Shown in pieces: positions 202-52,412 of a stretch of DNA of 64,000 bases (positions are counted from its first letter, which is position 1; every line of letters begins with the position of its first letter). A model generated the notes under the pieces. That model did not search any database, had not been told where the DNA came from, and saw only the letters and a list, made by a program, of their open reading frames with translations. Both the position numbers and the translations under genes were made by a program. This stretch comes from Capsulimonadaceae bacterium (GTDB lineage Bacteria > Armatimonadota > Armatimonadia > Armatimonadales > Capsulimonadaceae): assembly GCA_965215505.1 (NCBI GenBank), contig OZ244065.1, positions 4,832,001 to 4,896,000 of the forward strand, given 5' to 3'.

Positions 202-894
202 TTACTTTCCGGGGAGGCCCAATATGCCTGCCAGTTCCCCGAGCGACCCGATCACATAACCCGGCTCCCCCGCCAGACCCTCCGGCCACGGGTGCCCACG
301 GTGCAGCCAGGCGGCTTTCATGCCCGCCGCCTGCGCGCCTAGAACGTCTACAGCGGGGTTGTCGCCGACGAACAATATCTTGTCGGGCGGGACGCCCAGA
401 TGGGACGCGGCGGCCTCGAAGATGGCGCGGGCGGGCTTCTTGCCGCCGAAGGTTTCGGACACGAACAGGCAGTCGGTGCGGCGCGTCAGCCCCAATCTCT
501 CGATCTTGCGCCCCTGGCGGGCCGATCCGTTGGTGATGACGCCGAAGGGCAGGCCGGCGGCGGCCAGGGCGTCGAGCAGGGTTTCCGTCTCGGCCTCGGG
601 GGTGATGTGGGCAATGAACTCGTCGAAGAAGACGTCAACGGACCGGGCGGGGACATCGGGCAGGGCGGGGTACAGGGCGTGAAGCCGCTCGAAGATGGCC
701 GCCTTGGAGCCGTAGCCGTCGGCGTCCATCTCGGTGATCAGGGCGCGGACGCGGCGGGCTTCGCCTGCGTCCGTCAGGCGCAGGGTGTCCCGCAGGTAGG
801 CGTCGGCCCACCGCCCGAAGGCGGCTTCTCGGTCGTACAGTGTGTTGTCCAGGTCGAACAGGACGGCATCAAAGGGGCGCGGGATTGGGGTCAT
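202..894 (-). CDS. HAD-family hydrolase (YjjG/YfnB-like)
   Basis: Motif I FDLDNTL, ITNG, KKP and motif IV VGDNPAVD. Alternative GTG start at 945 overlaps the upstream stop. Confidence 0.9.
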   Translation of the reverse strand: MTPIPRPFDAVLFDLDNTLYDREAAFGRWADAYLRDTLRLTDAGEARRVRALITEMDADGYGSKAAIFERLHALYPALPDVPARSVDVFFDEFIAHITPEAETETLLDALAAAGLPFGVITNGSARQGRKIERLGLTRRTDCLFVSETFGGKKPARAIFEAAASHLGVPPDKILFVGDNPAVDVLGAQAAGMKAAWLHRGHPWPEGLAGEPGYVIGSLGELAGILGLPGK

Positions 895-941
895 GGGCGT
901 CTTTCTCGCGGTCCAGCCCCTTGTACCCACTTGCGGGCGCA

Positions 942-1475
942 TCACCTGCCCGGCGCGATCTTACGCAGCTCGCGCCGGACCACGGCGTTGCCCGGATAGC
1001 CGTAGGCGGTGAAGCGGACGCCGCCGTCCGGGCCGATGATGACGAGGGTGGGGACGTGATGGACGCGGTAGCGGGCGGAAACCCGGCCCCCGGCGTCGAG
1101 CAGGACCGGGAACGGCACGGTGCTTCCCGTGCGGCGGGCGAACTCGGACAGCCGCGTCCCGTCCACGCTGACGGCGGCTAGGCGGAAGTTCAGCTCCTCC
1201 TGACGGCCCGCCAGCTCCTCCAGCGATGGCATCTCGGCCTTCCAGGTGTCGCACCAGAACGCCCAGAAGTTCAGTATCAGGATATGCCCTTTGTAGTCTT
1301 CCAGATGGACGGGCCGCCCCTGCACGTCCGGCAGGACGAAGGAAGGTGCTTGACTGCCGACGGGCGGCCCGTTCGGCGGCTGGGCGCGCGCTGACCCGAT
1401 GGCACACAGGAGCAGACCCAGCACCATGTAGGGGCGGGGTCCCCCCGCCCTCTTTATCCCTTCTGCTTCTTTCAT
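942..1475 (-). CDS. TlpA/ResA-like thioredoxin-fold protein, exported, with atypical CxxW active site
   Basis: APSFVLPD...LNFWAFWCDTWKAEMP...VPTLVIIGPDG and a hydrophobic signal LGLLLCAIGSARA. ATG 1475 overlaps the A2M stop (ATGA). Alternative start at 1427. Confidence 0.85.
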   Translation of the reverse strand: MKEAEGIKRAGGPRPYMVLGLLLCAIGSARAQPPNGPPVGSQAPSFVLPDVQGRPVHLEDYKGHILILNFWAFWCDTWKAEMPSLEELAGRQEELNFRLAAVSVDGTRLSEFARRTGSTVPFPVLLDAGGRVSARYRVHHVPTLVIIGPDGGVRFTAYGYPGNAVVRRELRKIAPGR

Positions 1476-4400
1476 GGCCGTTCCCCGATCTTCGCGCGGA
1501 CCAGTCCGCTGTTGCCCCGGATTTCGGGGAAGTAGGTCAAGGAGGCCAGGCCCGGCAGGACCTGGTACGCGCCCGGCGTCTCGGCGCGCAGGCGGTAGGT
1601 CAGCCGCGTGCGACCTTTGGGCAGGCTGTCGAAGAAGAAGGCCACGCGGTCGTCGCGTACCTCCTGGCGCGCGTAGCCCGCCGCCCCCTCGGACGAGTCC
1701 AGGGGGTAGCTGCCGTCCTCGTTGCCGCCGGGCGCGACCTCGCACCCGGCGGGGATGGGGTCCTCGATCTGGACATAGCGGTAGTCGGCGTCGGCGGTGA
1801 TTTCCACCTGCACGTCCATCTCGGACCCGGAAGGCTGGGTGTCTGCCTGCGACGGGTCTTCCGCCGACACGCGGTAGACGCGGCGGACGGCCAGCCCGTG
1901 GCTCTGCGGAAGGGCCTGGGCGGGCGGCAGGGTGGAGGCGACGACGCGGCTGACATAGAGGGTGCCCGACCCGGACTTGTCCACGGTGAGGACGCGATGC
2001 CCGGCAAGTTGGGCGGGCGTCAGGGTCAGCGTCAGGGGCGCGTCATACACGCTCCCGGCCGTGGCCGTCAGGCCGGGGAGCGCCGCGCCGTCGAGGGCGA
2101 CGCGGGCCGTGAAGTTGGGCGACAATTCGCCCGTCGTTCCCAGATACTTCGCCAGGGCGAGGACCGCCTCGGCGGTCGTCCGCGTCGTCCCCCAGGCGTT
2201 CCCCTGACGGTTCCCCATCAGCCAGCGCACGGCGGAAACCAGAACGGCGTCATGCGGCCGGACTGCCAGCAGGGCGCGCAGGACATGAGCGGTGACGGCG
2301 GCGTTGTCGCCGCGCCAGCTATAACCGCCCTCCTCGTCGGTCCAGAAGGCCAGGCGGCCCCGGATGGTGGCCTTGTCCGCCAGACCACGCGCGATGATCT
2401 GCGCCTGCGCCGTGCCGCCGGTCTGGGCCAGCGCGAGGCACAGCGACGCCTGCCCGTAGACGTCCAGGTGGTCCCGCTTGGCGAAGGCTTCTTGCAGGAG
2501 CTTGGCTGCGGCCTTCGGGTCCGCGTCCGAGAGGGCCAGCAGCCAGTCCGCCCGGCGGCCCATCTCCCGCTCCCCGGCCAGCAGGTGTTCCAGGCTCCCT
2601 GCCCCGCGCAAGATGCGCTGGTCATCCACCAGGTAGCCCGCGCGCCGGGCGGCGACCAGCCCGGACAGGACGTAGGCCGTCATGTCGCCGTCGGTCTGGT
2701 CGCCCTCCCACCAGTTCCAGCCGCCGTCCGCGTGCTGGTAGCGGTACAGCCGTTGCAGGCCCAGGTTGACCTGCCTGCCCAGCGCCGCCGGGGGCAGGGG
2801 CCTCGTACTGCGCTGCCCCAGGGCCTGGGCGACGGCGACATCGGGCAGGAACGAACTCATGGTCTGCTCCGCGCAGCCGTAGGGGTAGGAGGTCAGATAA
2901 TCCAGGGCGGGGAACAGCGCCGAGGCCAGGGAGGGGGACAGCGTGAGTGTGACCGTGGCATCGGGCGGTAGGGCGCTCAGGTCGAGGCTGTCATGCCCCG
3001 ACGGGTCCGCAAGTGTCGCCGCCGTCGCCGTCACCATCTTCAGGCCCGGCGCCTGGGTGGGCAGCGTCGTCTCGGTCGCGTCCTGCGCCCCCGCCCCGCC
3101 GTCCGCCGTGACCGTGAACCGGACAGGCCCCGTGACCGTCGCCCGCCAGTCCAGCCGCTCCTGCCCGCCCGCCACGATCTGCACCGTGCGCGCCGCGTCC
3201 CCCGTCACCGTCGCCCCCGAGACGCCCAGGGCGACGTGGACCGTCCGCGCCGTGCCCGAGTAGTTCTGGACGATGGCCGAGACGACGGCCTGGTCCCCCT
3301 GGATGTAGAACCGGGGCAGGGCCAGCCGGACCAGCAGGGGCATCGTCGAAACCGCCTCCGCCGTCGCGCTGCCGACCGCCGTCTGGGCCGTGACCCCGCG
3401 CGCCGTCGCCCGCCAGGTGGTCAGGTTGTCCGGCAGGGCGAACGAAACGCGCGCCGTGCCGTCGGCGTCGGTCACGACGAAGGGGTTCCAGTAGGCGGTG
3501 TCGGCGAAGTTGCGCCGGACCCGGATGGCCTCGGCGGGGGGCGGCGCTCCGGGCGCGGGCGCACGCGGCACGGTCTGGTAGGCCCCGCCGCTGTACTGAG
3601 CGGCGAACGAGAACTCCGTCTGGATTCGGACATCCTGACCGCCGTAGAAGACGCTTTCGGGGTCCGGGGCCGCGTCGGGCGCGAGGGCATAAATACTCGC
3701 GTCCACGACGCCGAGCGACAACTCGGCTGGCACGGGCCGGCCTTTGTAGTCCCGCGTGGTGACGACGTAGCCCGCCGTCTCGCCGGGGTGGTAGCTCCCC
3801 TTGTCCGAGGCCACCGTGATGGACAGCTTCTGCTCCCGGCGCACGACCGAAAGCCGCACCTGCTGTTCGTAGACCTGGTGGTCCTGGACGACGGCGACGT
3901 TGACGCTGACCGAGGGGAACTCGCGGTCCGAAAGCGGCACCCGGATCAGCGTCGAGCGCCGGGTCAGGTGCAGCCGCTCGTGACGCCCCAGCCGCTCGCC
4001 TTCCACGGTCACCAGCGCGTAGGCGTCCGGCCGGGCGGCATGGGCGGGGTCGCCGTGGTCGGCGGCGCGGGCGGGCCTTTTGACCAGGGACGTGTTCAGC
4101 AGGATCGTCGCCGTCTCCCCCGGCGCATATTCCGCCTTGCCCGCGACCAGGGCCAGCGTGGGGAATTCGGCCTCGGCGGCCTCCTCCTCCCCGGCCACCC
4201 AGACCGAGCCGTCGGCGGCGACCTTGTCGTCCTGGGCGTCGAACGCCGACGCTTCCAGGCGTAGGTCGCCCGGACGCGGCGATGAAAAAGAAACCGTCCC
4301 CACCCCCGCCGCGTCCGTGTGGATGTCGCGGGGCGTCACGACTTCCTGGGGCCGGTGCAGGCGGTCATACTTGGTTTCGATCAGCCGGACCCGGACGAAG

Positions 4401-5851
4401 GCCGGGACCGGCCTGCCGTCATAGTCCAGGCTGTGGACCGTCACCAGCACCCGCTCGCCCGCCCGGTAGACCTCCTTGTCGGTTTCCAGAGACAGCCGGA
4501 ACAGGCCCGCCGCGACCAGCGTACTGCCGCCCCCGCTCTGGCTGCGGCGGCTCAGGTCCGTGACCGTGGCGCGCACGGAGAGCGTCCGGTCTGCGGTCCG
4601 CTTCTGCGTCGCGATGTCCAGGTGCAGGTGCCCCTGCGCATCCGTGGTGCCCGACCCGTCGTAGGCCGGCTCGGCGTCCGGCCCGTCGAACTCGATGTGG
4701 TAGGCCACCGGGGCGCCGGCGACCGGCTGGCCGAAGTAGTAGCGGGCGGTGATGTCCACGGGCACCTTGGACCCGCCCAAATAGTGCGGCAGGCCGAACG
4801 CGGCGGCGACGGTCATCTCGGGCTTGCGGTAGGCTTCCACGTCGAACGCGCCGTAGTAGCGGTGTTCGCCGAGGACGACGACCGTTTGCCAGTGCCCCAG
4901 GGTCGGCTCCGAGGCGAGCTGGAAGCTGCCCGCCAGCGACCCCGCCGCGTTTGTCGTCACGGTCTGCCGGGACAGCAGGGCGTCGGTGGCGTCCCGCACC
5001 TCCACGACGACCGGCTTGCCCGCCAGCGGCTGGAGCGAGACGCCGCCCGGCACGGCGGCCGGAGTGCGCGTCCGGATGACGGCCTTGTACTGGACGGTCT
5101 GGCCGGGCCGGTAGATGGGCCGGTCGGTGACCGGGTAGACGCTGTACGGGTCCGGCGCGGGCGGCAGGGAGGCCAGGGCGAAGGCAGGGTCGCCCGCCCG
5201 CCCGCCGTAGACCCACACGGCGTCCGGCCACGGCGCGGGGAACTGGCAGACGCCGTCCGCGTCCGTCATCACTTTGCCCCGCGCTCCGCGCCCGTCGTAG
5301 ACCGTCAAGGCCAGGCCCGGCAGTGGCCGCCCCGTCTGGGCGTCCGTGGCCGACACCAATGTCTCCTGCCGGGACCGCTTCGCCAGCAGGGCGACGTCGG
5401 TGATGTCCAGCCACGTCCGCTTCTCCACACCCGGCGCGCGGGCCGCGATGAGGTAGACGCCCGGCATCAGGCGCGGCAGCGTCACCGCCCGCTCGGCCCA
5501 CTGGTCCGGGTAGGTCTTGCCGACCGGGAAGCGCCAGGAGGCGGCGACCCGCAGGCCCGCTAGGGGGAGCGCCTTCAAAGTCTTGCCGAAGTCCGTCAGC
5601 CCCGCGCTGTTCTTCACCACGGCCGGCAGGTCCATCCGGTAGGCCGTGAACTGGGCCGAGGCGATGTTGTAGGCACTGAGCCGGACCTGCACTTTTTCGC
5701 CCGGCACATACGCCCGTCGGTAGATGTAGACGTCAAGGTTCGGTTTGCTCGCCCTGTGCGGAGCGGCAGGGGCGGCGGCCCGTGCAAACGTCAGGGGCAG
5801 CAGCAGCGCGGCGAGAGTCCATCGGCGAATGGCGTGGGCGGTTTCTTTCAT
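1472..5851 (-). CDS. Bacterial alpha-2-macroglobulin family protein with thioester motif
   Basis: TDRPIYRPGQTV (MG2), VRRNFADTAYW, LPDNLTTWR, thioester YPYGCAEQ, WGTTRTTA and a C-terminal receptor-binding-like domain. Sec-type signal without an obvious lipobox. Confidence 0.95.
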   Translation of the reverse strand: MKETAHAIRRWTLAALLLPLTFARAAAPAAPHRASKPNLDVYIYRRAYVPGEKVQVRLSAYNIASAQFTAYRMDLPAVVKNSAGLTDFGKTLKALPLAGLRVAASWRFPVGKTYPDQWAERAVTLPRLMPGVYLIAARAPGVEKRTWLDITDVALLAKRSRQETLVSATDAQTGRPLPGLALTVYDGRGARGKVMTDADGVCQFPAPWPDAVWVYGGRAGDPAFALASLPPAPDPYSVYPVTDRPIYRPGQTVQYKAVIRTRTPAAVPGGVSLQPLAGKPVVVEVRDATDALLSRQTVTTNAAGSLAGSFQLASEPTLGHWQTVVVLGEHRYYGAFDVEAYRKPEMTVAAAFGLPHYLGGSKVPVDITARYYFGQPVAGAPVAYHIEFDGPDAEPAYDGSGTTDAQGHLHLDIATQKRTADRTLSVRATVTDLSRRSQSGGGSTLVAAGLFRLSLETDKEVYRAGERVLVTVHSLDYDGRPVPAFVRVRLIETKYDRLHRPQEVVTPRDIHTDAAGVGTVSFSSPRPGDLRLEASAFDAQDDKVAADGSVWVAGEEEAAEAEFPTLALVAGKAEYAPGETATILLNTSLVKRPARAADHGDPAHAARPDAYALVTVEGERLGRHERLHLTRRSTLIRVPLSDREFPSVSVNVAVVQDHQVYEQQVRLSVVRREQKLSITVASDKGSYHPGETAGYVVTTRDYKGRPVPAELSLGVVDASIYALAPDAAPDPESVFYGGQDVRIQTEFSFAAQYSGGAYQTVPRAPAPGAPPPAEAIRVRRNFADTAYWNPFVVTDADGTARVSFALPDNLTTWRATARGVTAQTAVGSATAEAVSTMPLLVRLALPRFYIQGDQAVVSAIVQNYSGTARTVHVALGVSGATVTGDAARTVQIVAGGQERLDWRATVTGPVRFTVTADGGAGAQDATETTLPTQAPGLKMVTATAATLADPSGHDSLDLSALPPDATVTLTLSPSLASALFPALDYLTSYPYGCAEQTMSSFLPDVAVAQALGQRSTRPLPPAALGRQVNLGLQRLYRYQHADGGWNWWEGDQTDGDMTAYVLSGLVAARRAGYLVDDQRILRGAGSLEHLLAGEREMGRRADWLLALSDADPKAAAKLLQEAFAKRDHLDVYGQASLCLALAQTGGTAQAQIIARGLADKATIRGRLAFWTDEEGGYSWRGDNAAVTAHVLRALLAVRPHDAVLVSAVRWLMGNRQGNAWGTTRTTAEAVLALAKYLGTTGELSPNFTARVALDGAALPGLTATAGSVYDAPLTLTLTPAQLAGHRVLTVDKSGSGTLYVSRVVASTLPPAQALPQSHGLAVRRVYRVSAEDPSQADTQPSGSEMDVQVEITADADYRYVQIEDPIPAGCEVAPGGNEDGSYPLDSSEGAAGYARQEVRDDRVAFFFDSLPKGRTRLTYRLRAETPGAYQVLPGLASLTYFPEIRGNSGLVRAKIGERP

Positions 5852-6474
5852 CGTGCGGTTTCCTTCATGCGGACATCGCGGATCGCGAACCACTGCACCG
5901 GGGCGGTCGACCCGGCCCCCGCCCGGATGCGTCCCCAGAGCGGCAGGTTCTCCCGGCGGGCGGTTTCGCCGGACAGGACCACGCCCCAGCGGTCGCCGTT
6001 CTTGACGGCCAGGCCCTCGCGCACGGGGTCCAGCCGGGCGGCATCGGCGGCCGTGATGGGGCGCGGGCGGCTGACGAAGCTGACGATCAAAGTCAGGTGG
6101 GACAGCTCGGCGGGCCGAAGCGGCGGGAAGCGGCGGTCATGCCCCGCCGCCGCGACCGCGCCGGCGATGATCTCCTCGGCGGCATCAGGCTGGGTCGGGT
6201 ACAGACTCCCCATGCAGCAGCGCGGCGACCCGTCCGCCCGCATGGCGCTGACGAACACGGCGGCCGGCTCTCGGAACAGGACGGGCAGCGGACGGGGCGG
6301 CTCGATGACCTCCCGCCGCAGGGCGTAGGCGTCGAACGCCCGGCGGGCGAGGGCGAGGGCGGCGCGCTGCGCCGCCGGGTCCGCCCAGCGCGGGTCGTCG
6401 GCCTGTCCCTGCGCCCCGGCGGGGCAGGGCAGGGCGGTCAGGACCAAGAGCAGCAGCGGTAATAGACTACGCAT
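5848..6474 (-). CDS. AMMECR1-domain protein with N-terminal signal peptide
   Basis: AVFVS...PRCCMGSL...AVAAAGHDRRFPPLRPAEL...GVVL matches the AMMECR1 pattern (canonical LRGCIG, DPRF). Signal MRSLLPLLLLVLTALPCPAGA. Confidence 0.8.
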   Translation of the reverse strand: MRSLLPLLLLVLTALPCPAGAQGQADDPRWADPAAQRAALALARRAFDAYALRREVIEPPRPLPVLFREPAAVFVSAMRADGSPRCCMGSLYPTQPDAAEEIIAGAVAAAGHDRRFPPLRPAELSHLTLIVSFVSRPRPITAADAARLDPVREGLAVKNGDRWGVVLSGETARRENLPLWGRIRAGAGSTAPVQWFAIRDVRMKETAR

Positions 6475-6480
6475 GTCGTC

Positions 6481-6509
6481 AGTATAGCACGAACCTTCAA
6501 GGTAGTCAA
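6481..6509 (-). promoter_or_regulatory. Sigma70-type promoter giving a leaderless transcript for the AMMECR1-A2M operon
   Basis: Minus strand TTGACT, 17 bp, (TGc)TATACT, 6 nt, then ATG at 6474. No Shine-Dalgarno. Confidence 0.7.
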
Positions 6510-6755: not shown

Positions 6756-8351
6756 ATGATCGCTTCTATTGCCAGCAAGCCAAGTGTAAGCCAGCCCGAA
6801 ACGCCCGCCGCCGTCCTGAAGGACGGGTTCGAGTGGGTTGACCTGGAAGACGTCAAGCCGAGCGAGGCCGCCCTCCGGCTCGCGCCCGGCGACTTCGCGC
6901 TCAAACAGCAGGTGCTTCCCCTTGAAATCGAGGGGGAAGTGCTGGTCGTCGCCATCGGGGCACCCGAGTCGCTGGCCGCCGCCGACGACCTGGGCGTCCT
7001 GCTGCACATGCCGACGCGCGCCGTGCTGGCCTCCCCCATACTGGTGCGGGAGAAGATCGAGGAGATCTTCCTCGAACGCATTCTGGCGGGCCTGCCCGGT
7101 CAGAACGAGGAAGGCGGGCTGTCCGCCGACATTGACGAAACCACGGACCTTGCCGACCTGCAAAAAATGGCGGGCGAAACCGCCGTGGTCCAGATGGTCA
7201 ACCTGATCTTCGCCCAGGCCGTCCGGGACGGGGCCAGCGATGTCCATGTGGAGCCTTACGAGCGCGAGGTCAAGATCCGCTACCGGGTGGACGGGATGCT
7301 GCGCGACATCATGAGTCCGCCCAAGCGGATGCACGCCGCCCTGGTCTCGCGCCTCAAGATTCTGGGCGAGATGAACATCGCGGAGCGCCGCCTGCCCCAA
7401 GACGGCCGCATCCGCATCGTCATCGCCGGGCGCAACGTGGACGTGCGCGTCTCCATCGTGCCCACCGTCTACGGCGAGCGGGCCGTCATGCGTATCCTGG
7501 ACAAAGGGACGGCGATGCTCGGCCTGGAAGAGCTTGGGATGCGCCCCGACACCCTAGAGCGGTTCCGGAGCATGATCCGCGTCCCCTACGGCGTCATCCT
7601 GGCGACCGGCCCGACCGGCTCGGGCAAGTCCACGACGCTCTATGCCGCTCTGCAAGAGATCTGGTCGGCCACGACCAACATCCTGACCATCGAGGACCCC
7701 GTCGAGTACCAGGTCAAGGGCATCGGCCAGATTCAGGTCCGGCCCCAGATCGGGCTGACCTTCGCCAACGGCCTGCGCTCCATCGTCCGCCAGGACCCGG
7801 ACATCATCATGGTCGGCGAGATCCGCGACCACGAGACGGCGGAGATCGCCATCCAGGCCGCCCTGACCGGTCACCTCGTCTTCAGCACCCTGCACACCAA
7901 CGACGCGCCCGGCGCGGTGACCCGCCTGCTGGACATGGGCGTCGAGCCGTACCTCGTCGCCTCCTCGCTCACCGGCACGGTCGCGCAGCGGCTCGTCCGG
8001 CGCGTCTGCCCCTTCTGCGCCGTGCCGTCCGCGCCCGATGCGCCTTCGTTAGAGGCGCTGGGCATCACGCCCGCCGACTGGCCCGGCGAGGTGCCCTTCC
8101 GCGAGGGGCGCGGCTGCGACAAGTGCCTGCACACCGGCTACAAGGGGCGTGTCGGCCTCTACGAGCTGTTCCTGGCCGACGAGGCGATCCGCCGCATGAC
8201 CGTGGACCGGGCCGCCTCGTCCGCCATGAAAGAACGGGCCATCAAGGACCAGGGAATGCGGACACTGCTGGGCGACGGCAAGCTCGCCGTGCTGGCCGGG
8301 AAGACGACGCCCGAGGAAGTGATGCGCGTCTGCGCGCGGGAGTCGTATTAA
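6756..8351 (+). CDS. gspE: Type II secretion ATPase GspE/PilB family
   Basis: ASDVHVEP, ERRLPQDGR, Walker A GPTGSGKS, TIEDPVE, RQDPDIIMVGEIRD, STLHTNDA and CxxC...CxxC. Confidence 0.95.
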   Translation: MIASIASKPSVSQPETPAAVLKDGFEWVDLEDVKPSEAALRLAPGDFALKQQVLPLEIEGEVLVVAIGAPESLAAADDLGVLLHMPTRAVLASPILVREKIEEIFLERILAGLPGQNEEGGLSADIDETTDLADLQKMAGETAVVQMVNLIFAQAVRDGASDVHVEPYEREVKIRYRVDGMLRDIMSPPKRMHAALVSRLKILGEMNIAERRLPQDGRIRIVIAGRNVDVRVSIVPTVYGERAVMRILDKGTAMLGLEELGMRPDTLERFRSMIRVPYGVILATGPTGSGKSTTLYAALQEIWSATTNILTIEDPVEYQVKGIGQIQVRPQIGLTFANGLRSIVRQDPDIIMVGEIRDHETAEIAIQAALTGHLVFSTLHTNDAPGAVTRLLDMGVEPYLVASSLTGTVAQRLVRRVCPFCAVPSAPDAPSLEALGITPADWPGEVPFREGRGCDKCLHTGYKGRVGLYELFLADEAIRRMTVDRAASSAMKERAIKDQGMRTLLGDGKLAVLAGKTTPEEVMRVCARESY

Positions 8352-8360
8352 GCCTCCTGC

Positions 8361-8386
8361 GTAGGGGCGAACCTCGTGTTCGCCCT
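8361..8386. repeat. GTAG-type REP palindrome between gspE and gspF
   Basis: GTAG GGGCGAAC ctcgt GTTCGCCC hairpin. Confidence 0.7.
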
Positions 8387-8430
8387 TCCTTCGACTTCGT
8401 TCCCCTCCCAGCTCGTTAGGAACCCGGCAG

Positions 8431-9651
8431 ATGCCCCAGCAGACATTCGCATATACCGCCCTCGACGCCACCGGCGCGCGCCGGGCCGGGGCCATCGAGG
8501 CCGAAAGCCGCGAGGCCGCCGTCGCGCGGCTGGCCGGGGAAGGGCGCTTCGTGCTGGAGATCGGCGCGGCCGACCGCCGCGCCCAGCCGGAACCGGGCGC
8601 GGCCCGCAGCGGCAAGCAGCCCTCCCGGCAAGATCTGGCCCTCTTCACGCGCCGATTGGCAGACCTCGCCTCGGCGGGCCTGCCCCTGGACCGCGTATTA
8701 CAGGTCGTCGCCGACCAGTCCGAGAGCGGGGCTTTGAAGCGCATCTCCGAGGAGGCCCTGACCGATGTGCGCTCGGGTATGCCGATCTCCCAGGCCCTGG
8801 CGAAGCACCCGAAGTACTTCAACAGCGTCTTCACGCAGACCCTGCGGGCCGGTGAGGCCAGCGGCCAGTTTGGGGAGGTGGCGAGCCGGCTGGCCGACTA
8901 CCAGGAGAAGGAAGTCACGCGGCGCGGCCAGGTCACCAGCGCCCTGGTCTACCCTGGCGTGCTGGCGACGACCTCGCTGGGCGTTATCATCTTCCTGATT
9001 ACATTCGTGCTCCCGCGCCTTTCGGGTGTATTCGCCGAGATGGGGGACGACTTGCCGATGACCACGAAGGCGCTTTTGGGAGCGTCCTCGTTCGTGACGC
9101 AGAACTGGATCGTTTTGGTCCTCCTCATCGGCGGCGTGACCGTCGGGGTGCGCGCCTGGCTCGCCACGGCTGCCGGGGCCGAGTCGCGCGACCGCTTCCT
9201 GCTGGCCGCGCCGGTCATCGGCCCGGTCGTCCAGAAGGCGACCATCTCCCGCTTCGCCCGCGTCCTCGGAACGCTGGTCTACGGCGGCGTCCCGATCTTG
9301 GAGGCCCTGGAGATCGCCGGGCTGTCGGCCAGCAACCGCGTCTTCCTCCGCAGCGCCCAGGCCGTGGAGGGCGAAGTCCGGGCGGGCCGGGCCATCGCCG
9401 AGGCGATGCGCGACGCTGGCGGCTTCCCGCCCGTGCTGACCCACATGGTCGGGGTCGGCGAGGAGATCGGCGACCTGCCCAAGATGCTCGGGCGCGTCGC
9501 CGACAGCCTGGACTTTGAAGTGGATACCGGCATCCGCCGCCTGGTCGCCCTGGTCGAGCCGGTGATCGTGCTGTCCATGGGGACTGTCGTTGGCTTCGTC
9601 GTCCTGTCAGTGCTCCTGCCCATCTATCAGGCGCAGAATTTGGTCAAATAA
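8431..9651 (+). CDS. gspF: Type II secretion inner-membrane platform GspF/PilC
   Basis: FAYTALD start, LASAGLPL, GEASGQ, ALVYP, GVPILEAL, GEEIG, LVEP and three TM segments. Confidence 0.95.
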   Translation: MPQQTFAYTALDATGARRAGAIEAESREAAVARLAGEGRFVLEIGAADRRAQPEPGAARSGKQPSRQDLALFTRRLADLASAGLPLDRVLQVVADQSESGALKRISEEALTDVRSGMPISQALAKHPKYFNSVFTQTLRAGEASGQFGEVASRLADYQEKEVTRRGQVTSALVYPGVLATTSLGVIIFLITFVLPRLSGVFAEMGDDLPMTTKALLGASSFVTQNWIVLVLLIGGVTVGVRAWLATAAGAESRDRFLLAAPVIGPVVQKATISRFARVLGTLVYGGVPILEALEIAGLSASNRVFLRSAQAVEGEVRAGRAIAEAMRDAGGFPPVLTHMVGVGEEIGDLPKMLGRVADSLDFEVDTGIRRLVALVEPVIVLSMGTVVGFVVLSVLLPIYQAQNLVK

Positions 9652-9653
9652 GT

Positions 9654-10085
9654 ATGAACATGAGAATCCCTAACCGGTCCCGGCGCGGCTTCACCCTGAT
9701 CGAGATGCTGGTCGTCATCCTGATCCTTGCGATCCTGGCGGCCCTGATCATCCCGCGCCTCATCGGACGCACCAGCGACGCCAAGATCGCGAAGTCCAAG
9801 GCCGACATCTCGACTCTCAGCAGCTCCTTGCAGGAGTACCGGCTGGACAACGACCGCTACCCGACCACCGAGGAGGGCCTGAACGCCCTGCGCGTCCGGC
9901 CCAGCAGCGCGCGCGGCTGGAAGGGGCCGTACACCACCAAGGACATCCCGATGGACGCCTGGGGCAACCCCTACGTCTACCAGTCCCCCGGCCCCGACGG
10001 GCAGGACTTCCTGGTCACCTCCTACGGGGCCGACGGGGCGCCGGGCGGCGAGAACGACGCCGCCGACATCACCAGTGACCAATGA
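9654..10085 (+). CDS. gspG: Major pseudopilin GspG
   Basis: GFTLIEML N-methylation site, YRLDNDRYPTTEEGLNAL, WKGPY, DAWGNPY, SYGADG. Confidence 0.95.
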   Translation: MNMRIPNRSRRGFTLIEMLVVILILAILAALIIPRLIGRTSDAKIAKSKADISTLSSSLQEYRLDNDRYPTTEEGLNALRVRPSSARGWKGPYTTKDIPMDAWGNPYVYQSPGPDGQDFLVTSYGADGAPGGENDAADITSDQ

Positions 10086-10614
10086 ACCGCTCCCGAAGCG
10101 TCCGGGCTACACGCTGATCGAGCTGATCGTCGTCCTGTTCGTCCTCCTGCTGATGACGACTGCCGTCGTGCCGCGCGTCATCGCCCTGCAAAAGACGCGC
10201 CGCCTCAAAGACGTGGAGGCGCGCGTCATCCGCCTCCCCGCCGAGGCCCGGAACGAGGCGGTGCGGACCGGGAAGCCGGTTCGGTTGCGCGTGGAAGGTG
10301 CCGATATGGTCCTGGACCGGGTGCCGCTGAACGGCTCGCCCGAAGAGGTCAAGCGCGTCCCGCTCGGGGCGGGCATTCAGGTAGACGCCGTGGAGCAGGA
10401 CAGTCGGCCCGCCAATACCGGGTCTTGGCAATGGACGGTCTACCCCGATGGCACCGCCGAGGCGGGCGGCATCGAGTTCACCGAAGGCGCGGCCCGGAAG
10501 TCCCTGGCGCTGTCCTCCGACGGCGGCTCCCAATGGGTGCTTGGGGACCTGCCGGACGCCACGCCGGAAAGCTGGCCCGCCGGTCGGCTCCAGCAGCGGA
10601 CTTCAGGCGGCTAG
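10075..10614 (+). CDS. gspH: Minor pseudopilin GspH/FimT-like
   Basis: GYTLIEL, ARNEAVR, YPDGTA and position after gspG. Confidence 0.8.
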   Translation: MTNEPLPKRPGYTLIELIVVLFVLLLMTTAVVPRVIALQKTRRLKDVEARVIRLPAEARNEAVRTGKPVRLRVEGADMVLDRVPLNGSPEEVKRVPLGAGIQVDAVEQDSRPANTGSWQWTVYPDGTAEAGGIEFTEGAARKSLALSSDGGSQWVLGDLPDATPESWPAGRLQQRTSGG

Positions 10615-10628
10615 GAAGGTTCATCCCG

Positions 10629-11024
10629 TTGAAACGCGGCTTCACGCTGATCGAGGTGCTGGTGACGGTCGTACTCGTGTCCGTCGCGGTCGTCGGCGTT
10701 CTGGGCGGCATCCGCTCCATCCAGGCCGCCGGGGCGCGGGCGCGGGACGCCGACCTCATGCAGAAATTGGTGGCCGAGAAGGTGGGGGACATCCGCCTGC
10801 TCTCGGACCCGACCACGGGCGGGAACGCGGGCGACTTCTCCGACCGGGGCCACGCCGAGATCACCTGGACGGCGGATGTCGAGACGACCGCGACCACCGA
10901 CATGGACAAGGTGACGGTCACGGCGACGCGCGGCGGCCAGTCGCAGGCCTTGACCACGCTGGTGTTCGTCCGCCCGTCCGGGGGGTCGTCTTCGGGATCG
11001 TCGGCGGGGGGCCTGTCGCCATGA
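10629..11024 (+). CDS. gspI: Minor pseudopilin GspI-like
   Basis: TTG start giving (M)KRGFTLIEVL, short pilin body. Stop overlaps the next ATG. Confidence 0.75.
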   Translation: MKRGFTLIEVLVTVVLVSVAVVGVLGGIRSIQAAGARARDADLMQKLVAEKVGDIRLLSDPTTGGNAGDFSDRGHAEITWTADVETTATTDMDKVTVTATRGGQSQALTTLVFVRPSGGSSSGSSAGGLSP

Positions 11025-11845
11025 ACTCTCCCGTGAAACGGCGGCGGGGCGTGACCCTCATCGAGCTGCTCATCGTCCTGGTCATCACGGCGATCCTGGC
11101 CTCGGCCATCGGGTACGCCTTCACCGCCGAGCTGACCATGCAGCGAATCGAAGAAAGCCGCCGGGCGGACATGGACCGGAGCGACGCGACCGAGCGGCGC
11201 ATCGCGCGGCTGCTGCAAGGGGCGAAGCTGCTCGGCCTCGCCGTCCCCGGCGCGGTCCCCATCCCGACCGCAGCGGGGGCCTCGCCGGCCACGGCGACCG
11301 CGGTCGCCGCCGCCGGTCAGACCACCTACTTCGAAGGGCTGACCGAGGGCGGCGCGAGCGACCTGGGCAGCGACCGGCTGACTTTCACCACGACGGCCCC
11401 GGCCCTGCCGCTGGCCGCACTCGACGGCACGGACGACTTCGAGACGCAGCAGGGGGCGCGCGGGCCGGTCGGCGGCCTGGCCGAAGTCTCCCTGAGCGTG
11501 ACGGCCGTGGGCGATCCGGGCGGGCGCGTCGGCCTGTTCGAGCGCATCCAGCGGCCCAGCGACGCGGATCCGACGCAGGGCGGGACCGAGTCCCTCATAG
11601 ACGCGCGGATCGCGCGCGTCGGCTTCCAGTTCTGGGACGGGGCGCAGTGGGACACGTCCTGGGACGCCGGCACCCCCCCCCGTCTGCCCCAGGCTGTCCG
11701 CGTCAGCTACACGCTGCGGGGCCACCTGGACAGCGACGTCCGCGTCTTCGACGTGCCCATCCCCGCCAGCGATGTGGACGCACAGGCACCGCAGGCCACT
11801 AGTGCAGACGCGGCATCGCCGCAGGGCGCGGGGGCCGGCCAATGA
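11021..11845 (+). CDS. gspJ: Minor pseudopilin GspJ-like
   Basis: RRGVTLIELL and C-terminal FQFWDGAQWDTSWD...LPQAVRV typical of GspJ. Confidence 0.8.
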   Translation: MNSPVKRRRGVTLIELLIVLVITAILASAIGYAFTAELTMQRIEESRRADMDRSDATERRIARLLQGAKLLGLAVPGAVPIPTAAGASPATATAVAAAGQTTYFEGLTEGGASDLGSDRLTFTTTAPALPLAALDGTDDFETQQGARGPVGGLAEVSLSVTAVGDPGGRVGLFERIQRPSDADPTQGGTESLIDARIARVGFQFWDGAQWDTSWDAGTPPRLPQAVRVSYTLRGHLDSDVRVFDVPIPASDVDAQAPQATSADAASPQGAGAGQ

Positions 11846-11858
11846 AAAGAACGCGGCG

Positions 11859-13097
11859 ATGAAAAGAATGCGGCGCGGATACATCTTGGTGCAGGCCCTC
11901 GTCGTCATCGCCGGGCTGCTGGCCCTCATGGCGATGCTGGCCGCCGACCAGCGCACCTCCAACCAGGGGGTGCAGGACCGCCTGCGCCTGCGCCGGGCCG
12001 AGGACGCCGATGATGCCGCCGTCGCCCGCGCGCTGGCCGCCGTGCAGGCCGCCGACACCAGTGTCGTCACCGTGAACGACGACTGGGCCTTGGTGGGCGA
12101 CGGGGGCGGCGAGGAGTTCGACCTGGGCGACGCCACCTTCCGGGTGCAGCTCGTTGACGCCGGGGCGCTCGTCAACCTCAACAGCGCGCCCTCCGCCCAG
12201 CTTGAGCGCCTGCCGGTCACGCAGGAGCAGGTCCACTGCCTGCTCGACTGGCGCGAGCCGCAGTCACAGCCCCAGCCGGACGGCGCGAAGGACAACTACT
12301 ACAACGAGCTGCCGACGCCTTACAATGCCAAGCTCGGCCCGCTCGCCGCCGTGGATGAGCTGCTGCTGGTGAAGGGCTGGACCGGCCAGACTCTCTACCA
12401 GGCCCCCCCCTCGGCGGCCTCGGGCGACCTGCTGACCGACGCCGACGGGACCTCCCTGCCGCTGGCCTCTCTGTTCACCGTAGACAACGGGACGCCGAAC
12501 ACGCGGGCGGACGGCACGGCGCGCATCAACCTGGGACAGCCCGGCGCGGACCCCGAAACCCTGACGCGGGCGGGCGTCAACCCTCAGCTCGCCATGCAGG
12601 TCGCCTCGGGCGCTCCCTACACGTCTTTCAGCGCCCTGCTCGCGCTGCCGGGCATGGAAGCGCAGTCGGCCGGGGCGCTGCTGGACGTGGCGACGTTCAC
12701 GAGCGAGAAAAGGGTCGAAGGGAAGATCAATCTGAACACAGCCCCCCAGGCCGTCCTGCGGACCCTCCCGGACATGACGCCCGGCATCGCCTCGTCCATC
12801 GTGTCCAAGCAGTCATCAGGGTTTCACAAACTGAGCGAGTTGGCCGACCTGCGCGGCGTGGACCTGCCCCGCCTGACGAAGCTGGCCGACAGCTTCACCG
12901 TCGGCAGCGACACCTGGATCGTCCGCGCTTATGGCCGCAGCGGCGGGGTCGGCGTCCCCGTCGAGGCGGTCATCGGGGTGCGCGAGGGCCGCGCCGTGGT
13001 GCTGACGTGGACGCGGCTGAACACGACCGGCATCCCCCTCTGGTGGGGCTGGCCTTCGCAGACGACCTCAACGGCACAGGCGGGGGACGCGCCGTGA
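11859..13097 (+). CDS. gspK: Pseudopilin GspK with HhH repeats
   Basis: RRGYILVQAL (no Glu5), DAGALVNLN, LLDWRE, DELLLVKG, RINL/KINLNTAP. Confidence 0.85.
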   Translation: MKRMRRGYILVQALVVIAGLLALMAMLAADQRTSNQGVQDRLRLRRAEDADDAAVARALAAVQAADTSVVTVNDDWALVGDGGGEEFDLGDATFRVQLVDAGALVNLNSAPSAQLERLPVTQEQVHCLLDWREPQSQPQPDGAKDNYYNELPTPYNAKLGPLAAVDELLLVKGWTGQTLYQAPPSAASGDLLTDADGTSLPLASLFTVDNGTPNTRADGTARINLGQPGADPETLTRAGVNPQLAMQVASGAPYTSFSALLALPGMEAQSAGALLDVATFTSEKRVEGKINLNTAPQAVLRTLPDMTPGIASSIVSKQSSGFHKLSELADLRGVDLPRLTKLADSFTVGSDTWIVRAYGRSGGVGVPVEAVIGVREGRAVVLTWTRLNTTGIPLWWGWPSQTTSTAQAGDAP

Positions 13098-51179: not shown

Positions 51180-52412
51180 ATGTCTCTCCCATTTAGGCGT
51201 CTGTCATCCTTCAGCCGTCCGCTCGGCGTGGCCGCACTCGGCCTGAGCCTGCTCGCCGGCCCGCTCACGGCCCGCGCCCAACTCGGCGTCCACATCGACC
51301 CGCAGGCGCGCACCCTCCTTGATGAGATGGTGGCCTCGCAGCAGGCATTGACCGGCCTCAAGGCCACTGTCACCGTCCGGGACTTCGCGGCGGCGGGCGA
51401 GCGGGACCAAACGATCACCCTGGCGTTCCACCGGCCCAACCAGGCCCGCGTCGCCCTCGGCGACCATGCCGGTCCCCTCGCACAGTTCAGTGCCGACGGT
51501 AAAAACCTCGTCATCTACTCGGTCCGCGACAAGAAATTCACCCGGCAAGCCGCGCCCACCGGGCCAGACGCCATCGCCGGGGTCCTGAGCCTGTCGCGCG
51601 CCCTGCTGCCCGCCCTGCTGTCACGGCCCGCCATCCTTACCCGTCTCCTGGTCCAACCCGGCGTCCAGGTGGCCGGCGCGGGCGCGGACACGGTGGGCGG
51701 CGTGCCCGTGGACGTCGTCAACGTCACGCCGGCCGCGAAGCCCGGTGCTCCCCGACTGACACTCTCCCTCGCCGTGGGCCGCAAGGACCACCTGCTGCGG
51801 CGTCTGACCGAGCGCACGTCCGCTTCCCAGGCCGGCCCGAAGTCGCTGCACACCGAGACCGTCACCCTGCTGACGGCGGACCCCCGGCTGACCGCGCGGG
51901 ACTTCGCCTTCACGCCCCCGGCGGGCGTCACGAAGATGGCGCAGCAGTCCCAGCCGACGATGCACGACCCGCGCCTCGTGCCGGGCGCGCGGCCCTTCCC
52001 GATCGTGGCAAAAGACCTGAGCGGACAGCCGCTCTCGCTGGCGCAGTACCGGGGGAAGGTGGTCCTGATGGACTTCTGGGCGACCTGGTGCGGGCCGTGC
52101 GTCGGCGAGATGCCGAACGTCATCGCCGCCTACAGGAAGTACCACGCGCAAGGCTTCGACGTGGTGGGCGTCTCGCTGGACTCGGACCACGCGGCCCTGA
52201 CATCGTTCCTCAAGCAGAACCAGATGCCCTGGCGTCAGGTCTACGACGGCAAAGGGTGGGAGAGCGCCGTCCCGAACCAGTACGGCGTCCGCTCCATCCC
52301 CTTCGCCCTGCTGGTCGGGCGCGACGGCAGGATCATCGCCGTCGGGGCGCGCGGCCCGGACCTAGGGACGGCGATCCAGCACGCGCTGGCCCAGAAGACG
52401 GCGGCCCGGTAG
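51180..52412 (+). CDS. Exported LolA-like (DUF2092) + TlpA disulfide reductase fusion
   Basis: Signal peptide, DPQARTLL...RPNQAR...DGK...DFAFTPP, then DFWATWCGPC and SIP. Confidence 0.8.
   Translation: MSLPFRRLSSFSRPLGVAALGLSLLAGPLTARAQLGVHIDPQARTLLDEMVASQQALTGLKATVTVRDFAAAGERDQTITLAFHRPNQARVALGDHAGPLAQFSADGKNLVIYSVRDKKFTRQAAPTGPDAIAGVLSLSRALLPALLSRPAILTRLLVQPGVQVAGAGADTVGGVPVDVVNVTPAAKPGAPRLTLSLAVGRKDHLLRRLTERTSASQAGPKSLHTETVTLLTADPRLTARDFAFTPPAGVTKMAQQSQPTMHDPRLVPGARPFPIVAKDLSGQPLSLAQYRGKVVLMDFWATWCGPCVGEMPNVIAAYRKYHAQGFDVVGVSLDSDHAALTSFLKQNQMPWRQVYDGKGWESAVPNQYGVRSIPFALLVGRDGRIIAVGARGPDLGTAIQHALAQKTAAR

Follow-up and report, generated by a model that had tools for sequence, protein, structure and literature searches.

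A conserved cassette of AMMECR1-like, alpha-2-macroglobulin and one-cysteine thioredoxin-fold genes in Armatimonadota

Our analysis of a 64,000-nucleotide (nt) stretch of a Capsulimonadaceae bacterium genome (contig OZ244065.1, positions 4,832,001 to 4,896,000 of the forward strand; hereafter the window) shows that three adjoining genes, encoding an AMMECR1-like protein, an alpha-2-macroglobulin (A2M) and a thioredoxin-fold protein (Trx), make up a self-contained, phylum-wide cassette of Armatimonadota. The cassette is very likely a real functional unit. By analogy with the A2M-PbpC pair, we propose, with a probability of roughly 45%, that it is a periplasmic defense operon in which a protease trap would be combined with an AMMECR1/Trx pair acting on the cell wall. 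As a genomic context for bacterial A2Ms it is the third, besides thioester-bearing A2Ms with PbpC and thioester-less A2Ms with mag/yfa genes.

The genes were identified from open reading frame (ORF) coordinates, translations and Pfam matches above gathering scores. Four ORFs, all on the minus strand, and the elements between and ahead of them lie at the following window positions:

6481..6509, minus strand: sigma-70-like promoter TTGACT-17-TATACT with an upstream extended TG (sequence read directly)
5848..6474, minus strand: AMMECR1-like protein, 208 amino acids (aa) (PF01871, 80.1 bits)
5848..5851, minus strand: ATGA stop/start overlap, AMMECR1-A2M (sequence read directly)
1472..5851, minus strand: alpha-2-macroglobulin, 1459 aa (Pfam MG2, bMG3, A2M_BRD, A2M, TED, bMG10)
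1472..1475, minus strand: ATGA stop/start overlap, A2M-Trx (sequence read directly)
942..1475, minus strand: ResA/TlpA-like thioredoxin-fold protein (Trx), 177 aa (Pfam AhpC-TSA/Redoxin)
202..945, minus strand: HAD-IA hydrolase (Pfam HAD match)

The cassette is conserved across the phylum

A search of 41 related genomes with the AMMECR1 protein matched nine: the window genome itself, five of the 23 other species of the genus and three of the 16 sister-family genomes. At the loci fetched for these matches, the A2M gene always comes next in the same order, followed by Trx wherever the contig reaches that far, and the intact Trx ORFs read carry the motif WCDTW in six out of six cases. The arrangement persists in another family of the same taxonomic order, where protein identity falls to about 29-39%.

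Scanning one genome per prokaryote species for the motif [WCV]A[FL]WCDTW gave 68 loci. Nearly all have Armatimonadota-type titles (Capsulimonas, Capsulimonadaceae, Chthonomonadaceae, Armatimonadia, Fimbriimonadales, Armatimonas, Abditibacteria), a few are titled Vulcanimicrobiota, and a few labels of metagenome-assembled genomes seem misplaced. All three genes are present at 44 loci; 15 others end inside the A2M gene at a contig edge (L063 is counted here), three are too short, four have Trx and AMMECR1 without A2M, and two have Trx alone. A2M lies between the other two genes at 44 loci, in the order AMMECR1-A2M-Trx at 42 of them. Since the scan required WCDTW, invariance of the motif within this set is circular, and only the sets found through AMMECR1 test it.

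The AMMECR1-first test compared a profile of 43 cassette AMMECR1s with 401 genomes of the phylum, and WCDTW was not required. The profile matched in 225 of the 401 genomes and reached at least 179 bits in 59. Twenty of these 59 top matches were picked by hand; the trio is present at 19, with WCDTW in every Trx, and at the twentieth an A2M gene lies 4 kb off and the fetched stretch holds no Trx. Among 20 hand-picked lower-scoring matches, the cassette is found at one and is absent from 19. WCDTW occurs in each of the 20 cassettes reached by way of AMMECR1. A first, sequence-only reading of the window had suggested a dedicated module, and the neighborhood searches bear this out (trio at 44 of 68 motif loci and 19 of 20 top AMMECR1 matches).

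Within the window's genus, two loci hold decayed copies. At L017/L030, the N-terminus of AMMECR1 is followed directly by the final ~120 residues of A2M; at L013/L020, a frame change with a TGA splits AMMECR1. Four further loci are titled Burkholderiales (L034), Bacillota (L046), Synergistia (L049) and 'archaeon' (L070). Their cassette proteins nest among those of Armatimonadota/Vulcanimicrobiota, and these contigs may be mis-binned.

Might the three genes be neighbors by chance or by history, with no functional link? The patchiness of the cassette in the genus, where five of the 23 other species carry it, and its decay at L017/L030 and L013/L020 would fit this explanation. We consider it extremely improbable, since different families share the gene order at ~29-39% identity and, going by record titles, so do different class-level groups. 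In addition, the flanking genes vary from locus to locus, and export signals are found on cassette AMMECR1s and not on their non-cassette paralogues.

Arrangement of the operon in the window

The sequence-only reading described four same-strand genes joined by 4-bp overlaps behind a leaderless promoter. The strand and the two ATGA overlaps, at 5848-5851 and 1472-1475, stand as described. The third junction, between Trx and HAD at 942-945, reads GTGA, and a HAD start at this GTG is doubtful because the DxDxT motif (DLDNT) would then lie 31 residues in, whereas M18 gives the usual spacing (by reading). In relatives, the start codon overlaps the preceding stop codon in 13 of 41 AMMECR1-A2M junctions and 30 of 55 A2M-Trx junctions, and a further 14 and 17, respectively, are at most 30 nt apart (start codons unverified in both sets). 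The three genes are probably transcribed together as one compact unit.

The promoter, at 6509..6481, is also as first read. It is the sole promoter-like match in 7 kb, for which shuffled sequences predict 0.3, and its end is only 6 nt from the ATG of AMMECR1 (6474). This spacing implies that the operon mRNA is probably leaderless, with a transcription start placed from the promoter position. The same-genus locus L045 has the same layout, TTGACT-17-TATAAT-GACGAC-ATG, which was not seen in the other relatives examined. Finally, the motifs RCCMG, CAEQ and CDTW reported earlier are present in the AMMECR1, A2M and Trx translations, and the N-termini of these three proteins do look signal-like, judged by eye and with a hydropathy window.

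The alpha-2-macroglobulin and its variable thioester

By its domain set, the window protein is assigned to the bacterial A2M family, with Pfam scores of 102.6 bits for MG2, 43.4 for bMG3, 54.2 for A2M_BRD, 79.9 for A2M, 59.2 for TED and 84.6 for bMG10, all above the cut-offs. The signal-like N-terminus spans about residues 1-25, and the thioester motif CAEQ occupies residues 993-996 (DNA 2864-2875). Its closest counterparts among solved structures are human A2M (6e-26) and, for the TED/C-terminal half, YfhM (6e-19). The N-terminal two thirds is closer to the E. coli yfaS region (28% identity, 759 aa, 2e-56) than to yfhM.

The thioester is not a constant feature of the cassette. Of 45 full-length cassette A2Ms, 21 have a cysteine at the thioester position, all with CxEQ intact, and no cysteine is invariant in the protein. 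The remaining 24 have no CxEQ, and the 22 of them with an AMMECR1 ORF read keep both partners. In the same-genus relative L045, GNAEA stands at the thioester position, yet the trio and RCCMG are kept.

The window genome encodes two further A2M paralogues outside the window. The first, at C1:4395285-4400285 on the minus strand, is 1666 aa long and has no CxEQ; the second, at C1:3705935-3710575 on the plus strand, is 1546 aa long and has CFEQ. A tblastn search of this genome found no AMMECR1 or WCDTW-Trx near either.

Exported members of the AMMECR1 family

AMMECR1 is conserved from archaea to humans, and to our knowledge no biochemical activity has been assigned to the family in any domain of life, the human AMMECR1 gene included. 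A bacterial operon whose envelope phenotype can be assayed would therefore offer an entry point. The window protein scores 80.1 bits against PF01871 (cut-off 25), and its signal-like N-terminus covers about residues 1-23. Its RCCMG motif (residues 85-89, DNA 6208-6222) aligns with RGCIG of PH0010, so that C87 is the cysteine kept family-wide; across 43 rows, seven positions do not vary, C87, G89 and D113 among them. The structural model (predicted local distance difference test, pLDDT, 92.1) matches PH0010 (1VAJ, E 1.6e-15, template-modeling score, TM, 0.71-0.73), and a fold search with this model returned only three structural-genomics AMMECR1 entries of unknown function. Profile, predicted fold and conserved cysteine all place the protein in the AMMECR1 family.

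A second exported AMMECR1 is found outside the cassette. At L119:5426-8639, it lies in an operon with a penicillin-binding protein (PBP) transpeptidase (PF00905) and SpoIID (PF08486). The PBP-transpeptidase-SpoIID-AMMECR1 operon is kept in four out of four genomes of another Armatimonadota family (L119, L129, L130, L131), down to 42-50% identity. Of 19 non-cassette AMMECR1s, the one at L119 is alone in having a hydrophobic N-terminus.

In the AMMECR1 tree, the 23 rows of the type that accompanies a CE4 domain (support 96/87) and the 21 rows of the vicinal-cysteine type (support 100/99) form separate clades. A single origin of the cassette AMMECR1s was considered and set aside, as the tree requires three changes; it is unrooted with an open backbone, so nothing follows from it on the order of events. 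A 514-aa metagenome entry, P0124, the one protein returned by a search for longer AMMECR1 relatives, was also rejected as a natural AMMECR1-A2M fusion. Its AMMECR1 continues in frame into A2M, signal peptide of the latter included, before the reading frame is lost and the ORF stops; it is probably an assembly artefact or a pseudogene.

A thioredoxin fold with one active-site cysteine and its CE4 fusion

The window Trx matches AhpC-TSA (84.1 bits) and Redoxin (55.9 bits) and has a signal-like N-terminus at about residues 1-31. Its nearest solved relatives are of the ResA, TlpA and CcmG type; in the alignment with ResA (4NMU, 1e-19), CDTW falls on CKPC/CEPC. WCDTW (residues 74-78, DNA 1242-1256) is thus at the CxxC position. 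W74, C75, D76, T77 and W78 and the cis-proline P142 are invariant in 59 rows, most of which come from the search that required the motif. Because the second cysteine of CxxC is always tryptophan, there is no resolving cysteine at that site. The protein scores 90.5 against the ResA subfamily model NF002854, compared to a cut-off of 170. From these comparisons, it has the thioredoxin fold and cis-proline of the ResA/TlpA oxidoreductases but not their CxxC.

A thiol-redox or stress module is one alternative that these features bring to mind. Trx would be a 1-Cys peroxidase or a thiol-retention protein or sensor, AMMECR1 its client, and A2M merely co-regulated. Membership of Trx in AhpC-TSA/Redoxin, its single invariant cysteine at the nucleophilic CxxC position and the invariant cysteine of AMMECR1 would all be in keeping with such a module. 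However, the peroxidatic cysteine of peroxiredoxins sits in a PxxxTxxC context, which is absent here: by reading, Trx has LNFWAFWC up to C75, with A72 three residues before it. Peroxiredoxin NCBIfam models match Trx only at E 2e-4 to 5e-3. The position of A2M between the two genes at 44 loci (42 in the order AMMECR1-A2M-Trx) goes beyond loose co-regulation, and the domain fused to Trx in relatives is a deacetylase rather than a redox enzyme. We regard the redox module as quite improbable.

This deacetylase, a CE4 domain (PF01522), is fused to Trx at 29 of the 68 loci and scores 24-110 bits in four of the fusion proteins. The best matches of the L051 fusion are PdaB, PgdA and NodB. Among 24 fused rows, all retain the CE4 motif FDD and 19 retain HxxxH. 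In one Vulcanimicrobiota-labelled lineage (L047, L051), AMMECR1 comes directly after Trx-CE4, and the 4.6-6 kb upstream hold no A2M. In this lineage only, the pair is immediately preceded by a radical SAM gene (L051:4655-7724, and L047), whose match to the AmmeMemoRadiSam enzyme family is weak (31 bits versus a cut-off of 220).

Eight thioredoxin-fold paralogue matches occur elsewhere in the window genome; one of them, at window positions 52002-52355, has 28% identity to the cassette Trx.

Two variants of the cassette

Sorting the loci by thioester, AMMECR1 cysteines and CE4 gives two main variants. Variant 1, to which the window belongs, is found at 17 loci and has a CxEQ A2M, an AMMECR1 with vicinal cysteines (RCCMG/VCCMG) and a stand-alone Trx. 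Variant 2, at 20 loci plus two without an AMMECR1 ORF read, has a thioester-less A2M, an AMMECR1 with a single cysteine (xGCRG) and Trx-CE4. Several loci fall outside this division. L060 and L061 combine the thioester with CE4, in the order A2M-Trx-CE4-AMMECR1; L062 pairs a thioester A2M with an AMMECR1 that has one cysteine; at L020 the thioester is intact and the AMMECR1 gene is split by a frame change; and L028 has lost both the extra AMMECR1 cysteine and the thioester. Among the 45 loci with full-length A2M, RCCMG/VCCMG occurs only in the clade without CE4.

The sequence-only reading had centered the role of the module on the thioester. In its present form this explanation would apply to variant 1 alone: the vicinal-Cys AMMECR1 and the monothiol Trx would mature, protect or reset the A2M thioester or its free thiol. 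The restriction of RCCMG/VCCMG to the CE4-less clade, together with CxEQ at 17 loci, and the joint loss of the extra cysteine and the thioester at L028 would fit it. Other observations speak against it. The partners are kept beside A2Ms without CxEQ (24 of 45, with both partners at the 22 where AMMECR1 was read), L045 keeps RCCMG next to GNAEA, and a thioester A2M accompanies a single-Cys AMMECR1 at L060, L061 and L062. Trx-CE4 and AMMECR1 also occur without A2M at L047 and L051. Moreover, the correlation between vicinal cysteines and thioester follows one clade and so may reflect shared ancestry, and the thioester of the A2M/C3 family forms unaided during folding. Thioester servicing is therefore improbable even for variant 1, and a thioester-centered role is not supported for the cassette as a whole.

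Export signals

Signal segments were judged by eye and with a hydropathy window. In the window, each of the three cassette proteins opens with basic residues, followed by a hydrophobic run and a site resembling AxA. Of 21 cassette AMMECR1s, 19 have a hydrophobic segment at the N-terminus, compared to one of 19 non-cassette AMMECR1s of the phylum. Across a separate set of 41 loci, AMMECR1 and Trx both have such a segment at 31, or at 35 if borderline values are included. All three products look exported in most cassette members. At seven loci (L060, L061, L066, L073, L075, L076, L083), Trx-CE4 starts at or just after the A2M stop codon and has no hydrophobic N-terminus. Both partners are signal-less, with the A2M signal kept, at L060, L061, L075 and L083.

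Comparison with known systems

One study (PMC5764988) proposes that A2M and PbpC act together in periplasmic defense and repair, and describes MagD as trapping protease without a thioester while needing the partners from its own operon, to which it is physically bound. Neither context is present here, as first noted from the window. Our search for yfa and pbpC genes used tblastn with E. coli proteins at E <= 1e-3, a distance at which very diverged homologues could be missed. Within this limit, neither the genome nor the surroundings of any cassette locus yielded a homologue of yfaA, yfaT, yfaQ or yfaP; a weak yfaQ-like match in the unrelated L119 is the sole exception among the loci. The only pbpC-like gene of the genome is at 2.99 Mb, whereas the cassette is at 4.83 Mb.

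Like the type I proteins (E. coli YfhM/ECAM, Salmonella Sa-A2M), the window A2M is an exported multi-MG protein with CxEQ (here CAEQ), encoded in an operon with proteins that may plausibly act on the wall, and the idea of periplasmic defense and repair put forward in PMC5764988 would carry over. The differences are considerable. The window neighbors are AMMECR1, Trx, HAD and a type II secretion system (T2SS), with no adjacent pbpC, and the partners kept in the cassette are AMMECR1 and a monothiol Trx(-CE4). The signal peptide has no lipobox cysteine (by reading), and the protein is 1459 aa long, compared to 1653 aa for YfhM (from the yfhM coordinates). The window A2M is nearer YfaS in its N-terminal two thirds, and half of the cassette family has no thioester. 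With a thioester but no pbpC, the cassette is not type I.

The type II proteins (P. aeruginosa MagD, E. coli YfaS) are similar in a different way. The E. coli yfaS region shares 28% identity over 759 aa with the window A2M, many cassette members are thioester-less, and the A2M gene sits amid small accessory genes of its own operon. However, the window A2M has CxEQ (its CE4-type relatives lack it), and the two accessory genes have quite different folds and are not the six-gene yfa/mag partner set. The cassette A2M is YfaS-like, but because CxEQ is present and the yfa/mag partners are absent, the cassette is not type II either.

A looser likeness to type II could still exist, in which AMMECR1 and Trx are non-catalytic subunits that stabilize, anchor or gate the periplasmic A2M, as MagA/MagB/MagF do for the thioester-less MagD. 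The nearness of the N-terminal two thirds to YfaS (type II) rather than YfhM points this way, as do the tight or overlapping stop-start junctions, usual for subunits made in fixed ratio, the retention of the trio with or without the thioester, and the reliance of MagD on partners from its own operon (PMC5764988). On the other side, Trx(-CE4) and AMMECR1 exist without a nearby A2M, no Mag/Yfa partner homologue was found in the searches above, and some lineages have no export signals on both partners. The invariant, reactive-type cysteines of both partners and the CE4 motifs, mostly kept, suggest chemistry over scaffolding. A Mag-like structural complex is in our judgment rather unlikely.

The AmmeMemoRadiSam context is likewise absent from the genome, in line with the first reading of the window. 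The cassette AMMECR1 shares the fold and the conserved Cys motif with protein A of that system (TIGR04335), yet the window protein scores 72.4 bits versus a cut-off of 99 and has an export signal, which 18 of the 19 non-cassette AMMECR1s of the phylum do not. Searches of the one-contig genome (96% complete) with TIGR04336 and TIGR04337 found neither the Memo-like protein B nor the radical SAM enzyme; the same searches were positive in control genomes. Full-text searching found no study of the function of the AmmeMemoRadiSam system. Burroughs et al. reportedly connected Memo-AMMECR1 systems with nucleotide base or isoprenoid modification (JBC, 2019).

Trx, for its part, resembles ResA, TlpA and CcmG in fold, signal peptide, cis-proline and placement of the N-terminal cysteine, and differs from them in having an invariant CDTW for CxxC and in the CE4 fusion at 29 of 68 loci. 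No cytochrome-maturation genes were found among the Pfam-scanned window neighbors. Judged by profile scores and motifs, the cassette AMMECR1 is not AmmeMemoRadiSam protein A and Trx is not a CxxC oxidoreductase.

Full-text searches, whose coverage leaves out most subscription journals and supplementary files, found no report of the cassette. One preprint describes an S-layer gene neighborhood of the archaea Pyrobaculum/Thermoproteus that holds genes with an AMMECR1 domain and with a thioredoxin-like fold (bioRxiv 10.64898/2026.08.21.746120). The pairing of AMMECR1 and Trx may be wider and occur beside large surface proteins.

A model for the cassette

We propose that A2M would serve as a periplasmic protease trap, as in the known systems. 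AMMECR1 and Trx(-CE4) would constitute a two-protein unit in its own right, because the pair occurs without A2M. This unit would act on the cell wall or envelope, a role suggested by its company: a CE4 domain of the PdaB/PgdA kind in Trx, and a PBP transpeptidase with SpoIID beside the paralogous exported AMMECR1. The operon would then couple protease trapping with wall hardening or repair. The monothiol Trx and the invariant cysteine of AMMECR1 probably pair, for example as a mixed disulfide, which Trx could not resolve because tryptophan replaces its second cysteine. In the window variant, the model would have to work without CE4, with a thioester-bearing A2M and with a vicinal Cys pair in AMMECR1. 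Complex prediction for AMMECR1 residues 24-208 with Trx residues 33-177 scored 0.00 twice, with the controls left unfolded, and this result speaks neither for nor against binding.

Several points weigh against the defense operon. The role given to AMMECR1 is a guess, because the activity of its family is unassigned. No CE4 domain is present in the window's own Trx gene, so the link to the cell wall rests on relatives, and CE4 lacks HxxxH in 5 of 24 rows, those labelled Abditibacteria. At 6 of 41 loci, Trx-CE4 has no hydrophobic N-terminus, and at four of these AMMECR1 has none either, while A2M keeps its own. Signal-less Trx-CE4 and AMMECR1 may be cytoplasmic and could then not touch mature A2M; loss of the signal from both partners suggests that they work together, not necessarily on mature A2M. 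As for the conservation, WCDTW invariance across the 68 loci is circular, the AMMECR1-first and motif-first sets have many loci in common, and related genomes are not independent samples.

A more specific version of the model is a tentative one, and we think it somewhat unlikely. AMMECR1 and the WCDTW Trx would form a new two-component envelope enzyme system, in which the cysteines act on peptidoglycan or a wall-linked substrate and which is wired to A2M. If this were true, the cassette would represent a third type of bacterial A2M system and would be the first setting in which the function of the AMMECR1 fold is open to experiment.

The cassette crosses the thioester divide, in that both kinds of A2M share the same partners, and it is spread through a poorly studied phylum. 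It also places the AMMECR1 fold outside the cytoplasm, in the company of proteins whose general chemistry is known: the A2M protease trap, the thioredoxin fold with its single thiol, and the CE4 deacetylase. The invariant CxxW is a natural version of the substrate-trapping thioredoxin mutants, so that the partner of Trx might be recovered directly as a mixed disulfide.

Genes next to the cassette

Clustering all ORFs of the 68 loci revealed no further common neighbor family; with cassette genes and overlapping shadow ORFs set aside, the largest cluster covers 7 of the 68. The sequence-only reading had drawn two neighbors into the module. HAD is probably co-transcribed with the cassette in the window, as no terminator-like site was found between Trx and HAD there. 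We rejected it as a cassette member, since only the window and the decayed same-genus locus L017/L030 have a HAD homologue after the cassette. The T2SS link was abandoned as well: in relatives, GspE adjoins the cassette only at L017/L030.

In the window itself, a T2SS/pilus-like cluster diverges from the operon at 6756-13097 on the plus strand, with Pfam matches for GspE, GspF, GspG and GspH-like, GspJ-like and GspK-like proteins. At L062:9129-10658, a class-A PBP-like gene with 27% identity to E. coli PbpC lies convergent to a thioester-type cassette, about 0.7 kb past it; among the 111 loci searched, this is the sole case of a PBP-like gene beside the cassette.

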